A stretch of DNA of 64,000 nt from a virus (IMGVR_UViG_3300028840_005911:96001-160000); one strand, 5' to 3'; positions 1,247 to 10,888 are shown, counted from the first letter of the stretch. Numbers and translations are program-made. The notes: generated by a model not told the origin, from the sequence alone.

Positions 1247-1549
1247 CTACCTCTCAATTTGGCCTTTGCACCCTTGTGGCTCTCTCGCCCACGCCTTGAC
1301 GAAGGCGACCTCTTGCCAATCCGGGTCATTCTCCTCGTCATCAGGCCCCCAAGAGAAGACTGATGCCTGTTCTATCACCCACCCATCGCGATCAAAGTCA
1401 TACGATACGCGCACGCTGTCCGCAGCGCGGACATCAACCAGAGATACCTCGACGTGCTTGATAGGGTTATGGCGCGGGTAGTACAAATCCACGACCACTG
1501 AGTCTCCAAAATCCATGACCTCTACGTGGTCACCTACCACATGCTCCAT
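1247..1549 (-). CDS. hypothetical protein
   Basis: acidic ORF MEHVVGDHVEVMDF...; start moved to the ATG at 1549. Confidence 0.7.
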   Translation of the reverse strand: MEHVVGDHVEVMDFGDSVVVDLYYPRHNPIKHVEVSLVDVRAADSVRVSYDFDRDGWVIEQASVFSWGPDDEENDPDWQEVAFVKAWAREPQGCKGQIER

Positions 1550-2062
1550 CTGTGCCCTCCTCACCAGTATCATTCCTGTCTGCTTCTCGAGAGTATGCAG
1601 AGACGGGAACAGAGCTCATGTAGCAAGACAGCTCATCGAAGCTGACAGGCCTGAATCCCCAACAGTCTACACCGACATCGCACCGGAGCTTTCCATGTCT
1701 CCTCGTCAAACCGTGACTATGGCCGTGGACATGCCAAGCCCCGCGATTAGAGCTTTCCCAGCTCACCAGAGGGTAATGGCTCAGGACAATACGCTGCCCG
1801 TGAAACTTGAACGAGCGCAGGTCCCACCATCCCTCGAGCTTCTCACCATGCTCCCGTACAAACCTGTTCCACCACCCCATGTCGTGGTTCCCCCTAAACC
1901 AGTGCCAACATCCGGGCAGGTTAGGGAAGTACTTCTCCACGAAGCGGTAGTTCATCGCGAAGTCACCCACGTAGAATACCCGATCCTTCTTTTTGACCAC
2001 GGAGCAGAACTGCTCAACGACCACGGCGTCCATCTCGTCCACCGACTCGAATGGCCTGTGTT
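1530..2062 (-). pseudogene. calcineurin-like metallophosphoesterase, 5'-truncated
   Basis: GDFA, GNHD, SHYP, HGHSH, DVGVD motifs; frame continues upstream as ..QHRPFESVDEMD then hits TGA with no D-x-H first motif or proper start. Confidence 0.65.
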
Positions 2063-2120
2063 GGAGGAAACACTCTCCCGTAATGGTGCCACACCCCGAA
2101 CAGCTTACACCACCAGTCCT

Positions 2121-2360
2121 TCATGTCCCTATGGCTCCTTCGGCTTTATCGCGGATGAGCTCAAGGAACATCATCCTTTCCTTTGCCGGCCCGGCTATCC
2201 CGCACATCGCATCCTCGAGAATGAGGCGCATGTCCCTCTCGAGTTTCTCGACGCGGGCGCGGAGGGTGCGGTTCTGTTCTTTCAACCTGAGACGACCGCA
2301 CTCCGAACACTCATGCGTTGAATTGATATTTATCAATCTGCCACATGCGCAGTATCCCAT
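2121..2360 (-). CDS. small Zn-binding/coiled-coil protein
   Basis: CxCG...CxxC followed by a heptad-like stretch; RBS from the junction repeat. Confidence 0.65.
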   Translation of the reverse strand: MGYCACGRLININSTHECSECGRLRLKEQNRTLRARVEKLERDMRLILEDAMCGIAGPAKERMMFLELIRDKAEGAIGT

Positions 2361-2361
2361 C

Positions 2362-2547
2362 TCACTCCTCCCTCGCCGCGCGTTCTATACGCAGGCAGAT
2401 ATCGCAACACTCGTTTTCGGGCGGCCTGTCTCCATCAATCATTGCAGTTTTGGGAGCATGGATGAATCGACCACATACTGTGCGACTATTGCACATGCCT
2501 TTTAGGTGCCATTTTGTTCTGCGTCCATTTGCTTTGGTCCATTCCAT
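2362..2547 (-). CDS. small Cys/His protein ending RAAREE
   Basis: 61-aa ORF bounded by junction repeats; H..CG..CxxC. Confidence 0.7.
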   Translation of the reverse strand: MEWTKANGRRTKWHLKGMCNSRTVCGRFIHAPKTAMIDGDRPPENECCDICLRIERAAREE

Positions 2548-2775
2548 TTAACTCCCCTCCCTCGCCGCTCGATACTTGTTGCGGCACTCGGTGCATCCAT
2601 TTTTCTGCAGATGCCACTCGGTAATCGGGACATCAATATCCCATGAGACGATCTTGTTGCACAATGACATGGTGTCTGCGCCACCACCAAGCCTACGGCC
2701 ACGATCCGTTAGCGGTCTGATATGCCACACGCCGCCAGGCATTGCTACTGATGTCTCGCAGAAAGAATATTCCAT
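2548..2775 (-). CDS. small Cys/His protein ending RAAREGS
   Basis: 75-aa ORF bounded by junction repeats; WH..LC..CxxC. Confidence 0.7.
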   Translation of the reverse strand: MEYSFCETSVAMPGGVWHIRPLTDRGRRLGGGADTMSLCNKIVSWDIDVPITEWHLQKNGCTECRNKYRAAREGS

Positions 2776-2776
2776 C

Positions 2777-2974
2777 TCACTCCTCCCTCGCCGCGCGTTT
2801 GGCTACCATGTTCCAGGCGTCAACAGCTACGGTTTTTCTGTCATCAGATGGGCCGCGAGCACCACAATCAATCGGGTTGCCACACACCACATACCATTCA
2901 TAGTCAAAGCTGTTCTGGTCAACGTCGGCCGGGTTTCCACAGTATGGACACGGTGCTGGTTTCTGGTCGCTCAC
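2777..2974 (-). CDS. Lar-family (restriction alleviation)-like Zn ribbon
   Basis: PCPYCG...VVCG...CGARGP...AWN pattern; GTG start at 2974 after the repeat RBS. Confidence 0.65.
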   Translation of the reverse strand: MSDQKPAPCPYCGNPADVDQNSFDYEWYVVCGNPIDCGARGPSDDRKTVAVDAWNMVAKRAAREE

Positions 2975-3150
2975 TTCCCTACCTCCCTCGCCGCGTCTGG
3001 ACCGTCGAGTACTTTGCATAGATAAACTTCAGTCCAGTGCTGCCGAATGCTCTCGTGTAAAGCCTTCGCCATATCGTAATCATCATGCGGGTACACCTGT
3101 GGCTGACAGGTGCTGTCTCCGATGAATACAATCAGGTACTTGATGTTCAT
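2971..3150 (-). CDS. 59-aa protein ending DAAREVGK (below ORF-track cut-off)
   Basis: manual translation MNIKYLIVFIGDSTCQPQVYPHDDYDMAKALHESIRQHWTEVYLCKVLDGPDAAREVGK; 4-nt overlaps on both sides. Confidence 0.75.
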   Translation of the reverse strand: MNIKYLIVFIGDSTCQPQVYPHDDYDMAKALHESIRQHWTEVYLCKVLDGPDAAREVGK

Positions 3151-3353
3151 GTTGTCTTCCCCTCCCTCGCCGCGCGTTTGGCAAAAGACAGCGCTTCATC
3201 GAGTGTTCTTATCCCGGCATCATGCATCTCGCGTAACTGCGGAGCAGCCGAACCAAACGGAAAGCATGTGGCGCTCCACAGCAAATCGTTCTTCTCTTGT
3301 TGGGTCAAGTGCGGAAAATATTTGTCCAGAGAATCTTGGCACTCTTTACACAT
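3147..3353 (-). CDS. small protein ending RAAREGKTT
   Basis: 68-aa ORF bounded by junction repeats. Confidence 0.7.
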   Translation of the reverse strand: MCKECQDSLDKYFPHLTQQEKNDLLWSATCFPFGSAAPQLREMHDAGIRTLDEALSFAKRAAREGKTT

Positions 3354-3924
3354 TACTGCCCTCCCTCGCCGCGTGGACGGCGGCCTCGATCTCGGCCCAC
3401 GTGAAATGCTTGCGCACGATCCGCGCGTGCTCGATGTGTGCTGCCTCGGCTGCCCTGACCACCCTGGCAGCCTGGGCTACCTCGGCCTCCCCGGCCGCCA
3501 AGGCTGCCCTGACCGCTGCCTTGGCTGTCTCGGCTGTCCCGACTGCCTTGGCGGCCCAGTACGCTGCCTCGGCCGCCAAGGCTGCCCTGACCGCTGCCCT
3601 GGCTCTCCTGGCTACCTCGGCTCGCTTGTCGTCGCTCGCATCACCGCGCGCCCATGCCTCGATGAACACGAGCGCGTCACGTGACTCACGCGGCATCCAC
3701 TCCCACGCGGTGCGCGCGAGTTCGCACGCCAGTGCCGTGCGCCTGCGCTCGTCTGTGATTACGATGTCCACCAGCCAGGCCGACCACTCACCACGCGGGC
3801 ACGCGCGCCAGAGTTTAGACGGGCTCAGCGTTGGATTCTCGCGGATCCATGTCATGGCAGAGTCTGGGCCGTGATCACATGCCCTGTGCTCGACCAAGAA
3901 TCGTATCAGGTCATCTCGTCTCAT
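3346..3924 (-). CDS. Ala-rich Imm5-like phage protein
   Basis: LACELARTA...EAWARG followed by an internally repeated Ala-rich tract; ends HAAREGSNV. Confidence 0.55.
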   Translation of the reverse strand: MRRDDLIRFLVEHRACDHGPDSAMTWIRENPTLSPSKLWRACPRGEWSAWLVDIVITDERRRTALACELARTAWEWMPRESRDALVFIEAWARGDASDDKRAEVARRARAAVRAALAAEAAYWAAKAVGTAETAKAAVRAALAAGEAEVAQAARVVRAAEAAHIEHARIVRKHFTWAEIEAAVHAAREGSNV

Positions 3925-8887: not shown

Positions 8888-10888
8888 ATGTTCAAGGATT
8901 TCCAAAAGGCACTCAAGGAGCACTTCCAGGAGATGGACCAGAGGTCACTCTTCCGGGTAGACATCGAGCCGGACAAGCTATGGGAGAAGTACCTGGCCAG
9001 CTTCCCGCCCGGCACCAACGAGGTGTTTCGAGAAAGGACCGAGCACGACTGCTCATGCTGTCGTGCGTTCATCAAGAAGGTAGGCGGGCTGGTCTCCATA
9101 GAGGACAACCAGCTGGTCTCCATTTGGGATGTGGAGGTCGAGGGGTTCTACCAAGAGGTAGCCGACAAGATGGGCAGGATGGTGAGGCGGGCAAAGGTGA
9201 ACGACCTGTTCCTCCACTACGAGAAGGGCGTCGGCACCCTCTCGAATAGGGAGCTGATCGGTGACGAGGTTCACACCTGGAGCCATTTCCACCTGGACCT
9301 GCCGCCCCGGTGCGTGGTCACCAATCAGATTGATCTCAATGCGAAGGTCGGCGAGTACAGGGAGTCCAGGAACGTGTTCAAGAGGGGGCTGGAGGAGCTC
9401 ACGTCCGAGGCTCTGAACATCGTCCTCGACCTTATCGACCAGGACTCTCTGTACCGTGGAGCGGAGTTCAAAACGTCGATCAGCAAGTTCCTGCAGGTCA
9501 AGACTGCTTACGAGAAGCTGCCAAAGAAGAAAAGGGACAACTTCTGCTGGGCCAACGCAGCGCTCCCCTGCTCTCGTCTGAGGAACACGGCCATCGGCCA
9601 GCTGCTCATCAACCTGTCCGATGACATGGACCTGGACACCGCAGTCAAGAAGTACGAGTCCATCGTGGCTCCGGCCAACTACAAGCGTCCCAAGGCCTTG
9701 ATAACGCCCCGCATGATCAAGGACGCCAAGAAGAAGATCGAGGAGCTCGGCATCGAAGAGGCCTTGTACCGTAGGCATGCAACCCTGGATGACGTGAACA
9801 TCAACGACATCCTCTACACGGACAAGTCACTGAAGAAAGAAAAGGACCTGTTCGAGCAGCTGATCGATGACACCCCGGTCAACCTGAAGAAGCTGAGCAA
9901 GGTGGAGGAGATCAGCATCGACGACTTCATCGAGAAGGTCGTCCCGAAGGCGGAGAAGATAGAGCTGCTCGTGGAGAACAGGCACAACAATAACTTCATG
10001 AGCATCTTGGCACCCAAGAACGGGTCTGATGCGAAGATCTTCAAGTGGGACAACCTGTTCAGCTGGTCGTACAACAACAATACCGCCGACTCGATGAAGG
10101 AGCGGGTCAAGAGCATGGGCGGCAACGTTGAGGGCATCCTCCGGTTCAGCCTCCAGTGGAACGAGGACGGTCAGGACCAGAACGACCTGGACGCCCATTG
10201 CAGGGAGCCGGATAGGAACCTGATCTTCTACCAGAACAAAGGGCGAGTCCACAGGTCATCGGGGATGCTGGACGTGGACATCATCACCCCCGGCAAGGAC
10301 GTCGCGGTGGAGAACATCGCTTACACACATCCTGGGAGGATGAAGACCGGTGTGTACACGTTCTTGGTCCACTGCTACAGCTACCATGGAGGCACAGGAG
10401 GCTTCCGGGCAGAGGTAGAGTTCGACGGGGTGATCCACTCGTTCAACTACCCGAAGCCCCTGCGGCAAGACGAGAAGGTCACGGTTGCCCAAGTCAAGAT
10501 GAGCAAGCACGGATTCGAAATGGTCAAGTCCCTGGACTCAATCCAGGAGAACAAGGAGGTATGGGGAGTCACCACGAATCGTTTCCACGAGGTCTCGATG
10601 ATCATGAACTCGCCGAACTTCTGGGACGGGAGCTCCATCGGAAACAAGCACTTCTTCTTCATCCTGAACAAGTGCAGGACTGAGGACAAGATGCGTGGGT
10701 TCTACAACGAGTTCTTGCTCGATGAGCACCTCAAGCATAGGAAGGTTTTCGAAGTGCTTGGCAACGCCCTCAAGGTGGAGCCGAGCGAGCAGCAGCTGAG
10801 TGGTCTGGGGTTCTCCATCACTCAGCGGAATTCAGTCATCTGTCGGGTCTCGGGAAGTTTCTCGAGGACCGTGAAAATCAACTTCTAG
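8888..10888 (+). CDS. large conserved phage protein with a DUF2135/YfaP-like C-terminal domain
   Basis: HDCSCC near the N-terminus; NDLDAHC.EP...GMLDVD...VENI motif. Confidence 0.6.
   Translation: MFKDFQKALKEHFQEMDQRSLFRVDIEPDKLWEKYLASFPPGTNEVFRERTEHDCSCCRAFIKKVGGLVSIEDNQLVSIWDVEVEGFYQEVADKMGRMVRRAKVNDLFLHYEKGVGTLSNRELIGDEVHTWSHFHLDLPPRCVVTNQIDLNAKVGEYRESRNVFKRGLEELTSEALNIVLDLIDQDSLYRGAEFKTSISKFLQVKTAYEKLPKKKRDNFCWANAALPCSRLRNTAIGQLLINLSDDMDLDTAVKKYESIVAPANYKRPKALITPRMIKDAKKKIEELGIEEALYRRHATLDDVNINDILYTDKSLKKEKDLFEQLIDDTPVNLKKLSKVEEISIDDFIEKVVPKAEKIELLVENRHNNNFMSILAPKNGSDAKIFKWDNLFSWSYNNNTADSMKERVKSMGGNVEGILRFSLQWNEDGQDQNDLDAHCREPDRNLIFYQNKGRVHRSSGMLDVDIITPGKDVAVENIAYTHPGRMKTGVYTFLVHCYSYHGGTGGFRAEVEFDGVIHSFNYPKPLRQDEKVTVAQVKMSKHGFEMVKSLDSIQENKEVWGVTTNRFHEVSMIMNSPNFWDGSSIGNKHFFFILNKCRTEDKMRGFYNEFLLDEHLKHRKVFEVLGNALKVEPSEQQLSGLGFSITQRNSVICRVSGSFSRTVKINF

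Follow-up and report, generated by a model that had tools for sequence, protein, structure and literature searches.

Why should six unrelated small genes of one phage end in the same 13-nt block, read in the same frame, and does the block exist for the protein that it terminates, for the gene that it precedes or for the exchange of genes across it? The question is raised by a window of 64,000 nt, the whole stretch of DNA that was analysed, which corresponds to positions 96001-160000 of the complete 192,446-bp genome of an uncultured phage with direct terminal repeats and 55% GC (positions given below are those of the window unless the genome is named). The original prediction described a cassette-like array in which the block recurs six-fold at given positions and spacings, with one ORF per unit and with no copy noticed elsewhere in the window, and these observations were confirmed. 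An exact search locates the 13-mer GCGGCGAGGGAGG six times, always on the minus strand, the whole set spanning 2367-3372 with core spacings of 189, 226, 200, 179 and 199 bp and one ORF between successive cores (Table 1). A scan of the whole 192,446-bp genome returned no further exact copy of GCGGCGAGGGAGG on either strand, the chance expectation for further copies being ∼0.006, and GCGGCGAGGGAGG tops all 13-14-mers of the genome in repeat number.

All six cores are read as the codons GCG GCG AGG GAG (AARE) near the 3' end of genes A to F. The stop codon follows AARE after 4, 4, 3, 1, 2 and 1 codons in genes A to F, respectively, giving the tails AAREGSNV, AAREGKTT, AAREVGK, AAREE, AAREGS and AAREE; the constant reading frame just ahead of the stop that had been predicted is thus observed, at a distance of 1-4 codons. 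The 3' half of the block, GGGAGG, lies at Shine-Dalgarno (SD) distance from the next start at all joints, GGAGG being placed 6-10 nt before five ATG starts and one GTG start, in agreement with the proposal that the element is positioned as the ribosome binding site (RBS) of the next gene. At all six joints the upstream stop overlaps or abuts the downstream start. The own end of gene G carries an ordinary GAAGGAG SD in another frame, with no AARE.

GGAGG itself is the general SD of the phage, occurring 769 times in the genome and 4-10 nt before the start of 116 ORFs of at least 50 aa genome-wide. The eight bases 5' of GGAGG (GCGGCGAG) are common to the six array joints alone, and no common sequence was found upstream of the embedded GGAGG among 28 other coupled joints of the genome. 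Frame constancy is weaker evidence than it appears, because the xxG-GAG-Gxx frame also occurs at 15 of these 28 joints, which are likewise tightly coupled and have GGAGG within the upstream ORF; given this proportion, the occurrence of six of six cores in that frame has a p of ∼0.02-0.05.

Table 1. Genes and junction cores of the array, in the order of transcription (window coordinates; spacer, distance from GGAGG to the next start).
Feature	Coordinates	Strand	Description
Gene A	3346..3924	-	192 aa; first of array; ends ...VHAAREGSNV; all-helical; GC 67%
Core 1, A to B	3360..3372	-	AARE codons of A and SD of B; 6-nt spacer; stop/start overlap ATGTGTAA
Gene B	3147..3353	-	68 aa; orphan; ends ...FAKRAAREGKTT
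Core 2, B to C	3161..3173	-	10-nt spacer; ATGA overlap
Gene C	2971..3150	-	59 aa; orphan; ends ...PDAAREVGK
Core 3, C to D	2982..2994	-	7-nt spacer; GTGA overlap with GTG start of D
Gene D	2777..2974	-	65 aa; GTG start; Lar-like restriction-alleviation zinc ribbon (predicted); ends ...WNMVAKRAAREE
Core 4, D to E	2782..2794	-	6-nt spacer; TGAgATG; chimera-like flanks
Gene E	2548..2775	-	75 aa; Cys-rich; ends ...CRNKYRAAREGS
Core 5, E to F	2556..2568	-	8-nt spacer; TAAATG; sole copy without preceding C
Gene F	2362..2547	-	61 aa; Cys-rich orphan; ends ...RIERAAREE
Core 6, F to G	2367..2379	-	6-nt spacer; TGAgATG
Gene G	2121..2360	-	79 aa; zinc ribbon and coiled coil; last gene served by the element

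Family assignments could be made for part of the array. Gene A has 469 relatives detected by HMMER, and of the 30 that were aligned (E 1e-16 to 1e-6) 18 match Pfam PF21805, Imm5_like. A Pfam search of gene A itself gave no match, the family link running through these HMMER relatives, by which gene A appears to be related to Imm5-like putative immunity proteins. Its AF2 model has a pLDDT of 83, with the tail at low confidence, and a comparison of the model with the solved structures in the PDB gave no match. The GC content of gene A stands against 51-56% for genes B-G and falls within the top 0.6% of genome windows (z 3.4). Gene D matches Pfam PF14354 above the cut-off (30.7 bits versus a gathering threshold of 28.6, E 3.8e-7, residues 8-56) and phrog_599 (E 8e-11), while its score of 33 bits against TIGR03655 is under the cut-off of 39.6; these matches confirm the Lar-like protein anticipated among the cargo, and the 65-aa product with its GTG start is the form on record. 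Gene E has the homologues P0154 (63% identity) and P0155 (54%). No match was obtained in Pfam, PHROG or NCBIfam for genes B and G, nor in Pfam or PHROG for genes C and F, and a structure search of gene B in the Atlas returned merely generic helical look-alikes. Cultured phages contained no match to B, C, E or F by tblastn, nor to the array DNA.

Genes of the A, D and E types occur in differing neighbourhoods in other phage-like contigs, and one of these contigs has an Imm5-like gene beside DNA methyltransferases and at a distance of two genes from Lar-like genes. The anti-defence hint of the original prediction is in keeping with this cargo, whose Lar-like and Imm5-like genes have a counter-defence flavour predicted from family names, and a counter-defence or host-takeover role of the A-G operon is plausible when judged from these family names alone.

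The relationship between the block and the gene bodies is seen in A, D and E, the only genes with detectable families, in which the block starts within a few residues of the end of homology. The relatives of gene A share a C-terminal IVRkhIPW..v..A motif, after which their ends vary and AARE is found in none of them. The Lar domain of gene D stops at residue 55-56 of the 65. Gene E and its homologues align through C-x-x-C-R-x-x-Y and diverge exactly at the start of RAAREGS; in L193, the SD ahead of the homologue is of the ordinary type and lies within an endonuclease VII gene. In these three genes the AARE tail is an add-on and not native, because family homology stops just before the block. 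The suggestion that incoming ORFs are fused to a ready-made tail is borne out to this extent.

Sequence shared around the cores differs from joint to joint. Most joint pairs have 0-2 nt in common beyond the core, and the cores at 3360, 2982 and 2556 share almost nothing past 13-14 nt. Cores 2 and 4 have nine extra upstream nt in common (gccaaacgc), cores 6 and 2 have five upstream bases in common, and cores 4 and 6 have five nt upstream and ten downstream in common, the segments 2353-2384 and 2768-2799 around the latter two cores being identical at 31 of 32 nt. The shared stretches of 28 bp (2367/2782) and 22 bp (2782/3161) noted originally were recovered. Core 4 consequently resembles a mosaic of the left flank of core 2 and the right flank of core 6. 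Compared with random sets of six SD-anchored sites on the same strand of the same genome, the extended flank identity has p values of 3e-4 and <5e-5. This mosaic sharing of 22-32 nt at some joints indicates copying. Over positions -5 to -1 the similarity (consensus aaCGC) falls off gradually, and copying of one sequence is suggested because such gradual decay would be unexpected if six genes had converged on a 13-nt consensus. The three bare cores (3360, 2982 and 2556) fit a discrete selected site as well as they fit repeated crossovers.

Related phages and databases were searched for further carriers. A terminase search identified four contigs at 65-67% identity and one at 48%, and four of these five were compared in full; near-identical assemblies of the phage are on record and were outside the comparison. 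The four relatives contain no array genes, no core and no analogous junction k-mer. The closest of the relatives is a 192,137-bp record with a terminase 67% identical and a GC content of 47.5%, and the array lies within a ∼40 kb hypervariable region (genome 84-124 kb) which has almost no tblastx similarity to it. A neighbouring 666-aa gene has relatives at 44-46% identity only. Scans of IMG/VR with a two-copy pattern, an 18-mer and a 22-mer revealed no other carrier. In metagenomes, a two-copy 11-mer gave at least 120 matches, of which all those listed are GC-rich coding or tandem repeats and none of those listed combines unrelated bodies with a stop and start; in 185,579 species genomes, a two-copy 13-mer gave 10 matches, all whole-unit tandem repeats. 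Among IMG/VR, the metagenome matches listed, the 185,579 species genomes and the four relatives scanned, the element is private to this phage.

The small accessory genes A-G make up a single, translationally coupled operon in a hypervariable region, an operon that probably serves host takeover or counter-defence. The best reading of the element, to which we would give about an even chance of being correct, is that of a copied junction module which acts as RBS and coupling signal and in which the AARE tail is a passenger. The 13-nt block would function as a 'standard connector', copied from joint to joint upon gene insertion or replacement via recombination in short homology and kept for the strong RBS and tight coupling that it would offer each downstream gene. 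The connector would set the upstream stop on the next start, and the AARE tail on the upstream protein would be tolerated. In addition, six 13-bp direct repeats ∼200 bp apart could be substrates for deleting, circularising or swapping whole genes. The presence of six exact copies within 1 kb of a 192-kb genome supports the connector, against which stands the finding of no second genome with the element and of no gain, loss or swap at a core. Also in its favour are the SD spacing with coupled stops and starts, the identical codons, the end of family homology just ahead of the block in A, D and E, the ordinary SD of the E homologue in L193, the unrelated gene bodies, the deviating GC of gene A, the mosaic flanks, the hypervariable location and the differing neighbourhoods of A-, D- and E-type genes. 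RBS function alone is insufficient to account for the full 13-nt length because five of the 13 bases (GCGGC) are unable to pair with the standard 16S 3' end, reasoning from the conserved anti-SD.

The constant tail could alternatively be the reason for the constant block, AARE serving as a C-terminal tag (a degron, sorting or cleavage signal) on proteins A-F, as the original prediction also allowed. The shared frame in six of six genes, an Arg which precedes AARE in four of six and is encoded once by another codon (CGA versus CGC), and the Lys-x-Ala found in two tails are in keeping with such a tag. However, GCG is a minor Ala codon, representing 18% of Ala codons in the genome, and GCG-GCG in all six tails has a p of ∼1e-9 under selection on the peptide alone, for these two Ala codons alone. 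Furthermore, AARE is followed by differing residues, and by differing numbers of them, and hence is not C-terminal, no other ORF in the whole genome ends in AARE, by other codons or otherwise, and xxG-GAG-G is the usual frame of ORF-embedded SDs in the phage. The block is thus conserved as DNA or RNA and not as peptide, and the peptide tag is rejected as very improbable, given the identical codons and the absence of AARE from the end of every other ORF. The Lys-x-Ala protease motif was also rejected as the function of the tail, being present in two of six tails only. The array could also have arisen by tandem duplication of one ancestral small gene, the bodies having diverged while the joint stayed fixed. 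Units are of similar size (179-226 bp), and D, F, G and perhaps E are small Cys-rich zinc-ribbon-type proteins, but a comparison of the seven tail-trimmed proteins and two neighbours detected no pairwise similarity (best E 0.086 in this nine-sequence database). Moreover, A is a 192-aa helical Imm5-like protein encoded by a gene of differing GC, D is Lar-like and E belongs to its own family, which lacks the tail. Paralogy from tandem duplication, one of the refutations proposed with the original prediction, is therefore not seen; the six genes are unrelated as described, and we hold an origin by duplication to be highly unlikely.

Two further readings assign the 13-mer a role as nucleotides. 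In the one, capture is integron-like or otherwise site-specific, the 13-mer being an attachment site or target-site duplication. The repeat-gene-repeat layout, with unrelated single-gene cargo in one orientation, resembles such cassettes; against this, a tyrosine recombinase (PF00589) is absent from the complete genome, in a search whose controls were positive, the joints contain neither attC-like nor other inverted repeats, cassette ends are not conserved past the core, and no other array with the core occurs in IMG/VR or the 185,579 species genomes. This reading is scarcely credible. In the other, the 13-mer is a start-associated regulatory site, in mRNA or DNA, bound by a putative phage or host protein or RNA. 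This is the main rival of the connector, although we place it clearly short of an even chance; control of this kind has been proposed for the start-associated sequences of Cluster K mycobacteriophages and shown for the stoperators of Cluster A. All 13 positions are invariant and similarity is lost abruptly in three of six copies, SD pairing leaves the 5' GCGGC unexplained, orientation and placement before starts are fixed, the element is limited to one operon, and the anatomy is near that of the start-associated sequences of PMC3203893. On the other hand, no candidate factor was found, the RegA and RegB profiles having no match in the genome, with the controls for both profiles equally silent. 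The array has no Rfam match and its joints have no common RNA structure, the folding of six 101-nt joints being no more stable than that of shuffled sequences (z -0.5 to +1.1). Some joints are identical over longer, mosaic stretches, which shows copying and not convergence on a 13-nt consensus, and conservation in relatives, by which selection could be demonstrated, was not found. The factor would co-ordinate translation, decay or transcription of genes B-G. Selection on a regulatory site would act on its nucleotides and would not require the site to be a recombination joint; this reading is compatible with the junction module that we prefer.

There is no intergenic space between the array genes, and neither promoter-like nor terminator-like sites were found on the minus strand between them. 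Targeting by the G-every-fourth-base RNAs of this genome was considered and discarded, there being no sign of it because, outside the array, the genome does not contain the complement of the core.

A more far-reaching version, which we regard as doubtful, is that the 13-mer is a dedicated cis signal of an unsampled lineage, either a gene-exchange connector or a translational-switch site for a phage factor. If this were true, a plug-in connector would exchange whole counter-defence genes between co-infecting phages, or a phage factor would switch a whole anti-defence operon on or off at translation. A fixed peptide tail would also be imposed on each preceding protein, because the upstream ribosome must read through the element. 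Phage accessory regions are where counter-defence genes turn over. To our knowledge, the movement of single genes in such regions is understood in few systems only, namely the PeSLs and the lambdoid boundary sequences. Should the block turn out to be a site of recombination or of regulation, it would extend such connectors to coding sequence and would offer a lead to new counter-defence genes; at present, the array is one private instance.

Among known systems, lambdoid boundary or linker sequences at mosaic joints were reportedly described by Juhala et al. in 2000 and Clark et al. in 2001. They are short, conserved sequences at gene boundaries, proposed as targets of homologous recombination between unrelated genes. 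Whereas they are defined by the breakpoints between related genomes, the array is known from one genome. Stoperators are DNA sites for a phage repressor, distributed genome-wide in a temperate phage in one orientation near gene boundaries. Those of Cluster A mycobacteriophages are given as 13-bp asymmetric repressor sites in PMC3203893. The array sites are similarly 13-bp, asymmetric, near gene boundaries and in one orientation relative to transcription; unlike stoperators, they number six, all in a single operon, and precede the starts at a fixed distance, and no repressor was identified.

By comparison of anatomy, the closest system is the start-associated sequences (SAS) of Cluster K mycobacteriophages, a 13-bp asymmetric repeat containing the SD core (Pope et al. 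2011, PMC3203893). SAS occur in one orientation a few bases before the starts, mostly ATG, of unrelated non-structural genes, at 3-7 bp from the downstream start codon, and include invariant positions incapable of 16S rRNA pairing; neither other phages nor the host have them, and they are suspected of acting in translation, the repeat having been described and not explained (PMC3203893). The array element is likewise 13-bp and asymmetric, contains an SD core and lies in a single orientation before starts, and its distance from GGAGG to the start is slightly wider than the spacing of SAS. The two differ in sequence, GCGGCGAGGGAGG in the array and the consensus 5'-GGGATAGGAGCCC in SAS (PMC3203893). 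SAS are present in 11-19 copies over half the genome, the non-structural half, and are conserved across the phage cluster (PMC3203893), in contrast to six contiguous copies in one operon of one phage and none in the four relatives. About half of the SAS have upstream 17-bp inverted repeats (ESAS), and the upstream stop is often inside the SAS (PMC3203893); inverted repeats are absent from the array joints, and the array SD is at the 3' end of a block that is translated whole, in a single frame, as the tail of the upstream protein.

The abilities of such repeats are best documented by the PeSL (promoter-early stem-loop) of T4-type phages, short repeats that separate small, non-essential ORFan genes in hyperplastic regions (Arbiol et al. 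2010, PMC2839356; PMC4122927). The last part of each PeSL is the SD and start of the gene that follows, and when copies recombine, genes are deleted, swapped or circularised, giving mini-circles (PMC2839356; PMC4122927). The array resembles this arrangement in lying in a hyperplastic region among ORFans, B, C and F having no cultured-phage homologues and G no family match. PeSL are intergenic and longer, with a sigma-70 early promoter and a terminator hairpin (PMC2839356; PMC4122927), whereas the array element is coding, has no promoter or stem-loop and connects the genes of a single transcript. For PeSL, shuffling is documented; for the array, we infer it only. The array element belongs with the RBS-associated junction repeats between phage accessory genes, a known type, in which it is unusual in that the whole element lies inside the upstream ORF, and therefore places one tail on six unrelated proteins. 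One block of 13 bases is protein tail, RBS and direct repeat at once, which makes the array a compact example of the type.

Three consecutive genes of the minus-strand array, E, F and G, open with ATGGRAT, their proteins starting MEY, MEW and MGY, respectively. This likeness may reflect chance, because MEYSFCET belongs to the native sequence of the family of gene E, or the first codons may have been carried along with a copied joint, the 13-base block that ends genes A–F and carries the SD of the next gene. The same 13-mer occurs 13 times, at a spacing of ~195 bp, between positions 900 and 4000 of a Nitrosopumilaceae MAG contig (L169). These copies are embedded in a conserved ~195-bp repeat unit, probably a repeated protein domain, and are therefore unrelated to the phage element.

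The repeats within gene A encode Ala-rich AAxAAxxA helices, typical of Imm5-like relatives; over this segment the structural model is at its least confident (pLDDT 55–65). Outside the window, several 11–14-mers, e.g. ACAGGTCCTACCGG, are each present 4–7 times in 6.5 kb of the phage genome (G000:C1:43015-49500), which suggests one or more genes with repeated Gly-Pro-Thr-type units.

Features and their coordinates (window positions unless a contig is named)
Feature	Position	Strand	Remarks
Phosphoesterase region	1530-2124	-	phrog_547, E 1.8e-32
36-aa ORF	2014-2124	-	frame differs from phosphoesterase; ATGA overlap with gene G stop
ATGGRAT starts of genes G, F, E	2354-2360, 2541-2547, 2769-2775	-	
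Nested direct and inverted repeats	3440-3633	-	within gene A; 9-nt phase
666-aa protein gene	8888-10888	+	phrog_1735 (function unknown), E 5.7e-255
875-bp segment	L190:5502-5506 vs L191:1764-2640		one contig only; breakpoint overlap 5 bp, inside genes

The phosphoesterase is probably inactive, as its gene may have lost the N-terminal part or undergone a frameshift. The N-terminal metal-binding motif WFTSDTHFGH, present in all five homologues compared, is missing, alignment with homologues begins at RPFESVDEMD, and there is no in-frame start codon upstream of the GTG (2042). The 666-aa gene lies inside the hypervariable region on the strand opposite to the array; its phrog_1735 match spans the protein from end to end, and its nearest IMG/VR relatives are only 44–46% identical.

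Two contigs carrying the same Imm5-like protein, L190 and L191, are 100% identical outside one 875-bp segment, which covers a PAPS-reductase gene and portions of two others, encoding 195 aa and 91 aa. The difference is a natural microhomology indel in a phage lineage other than that of the window (G000).
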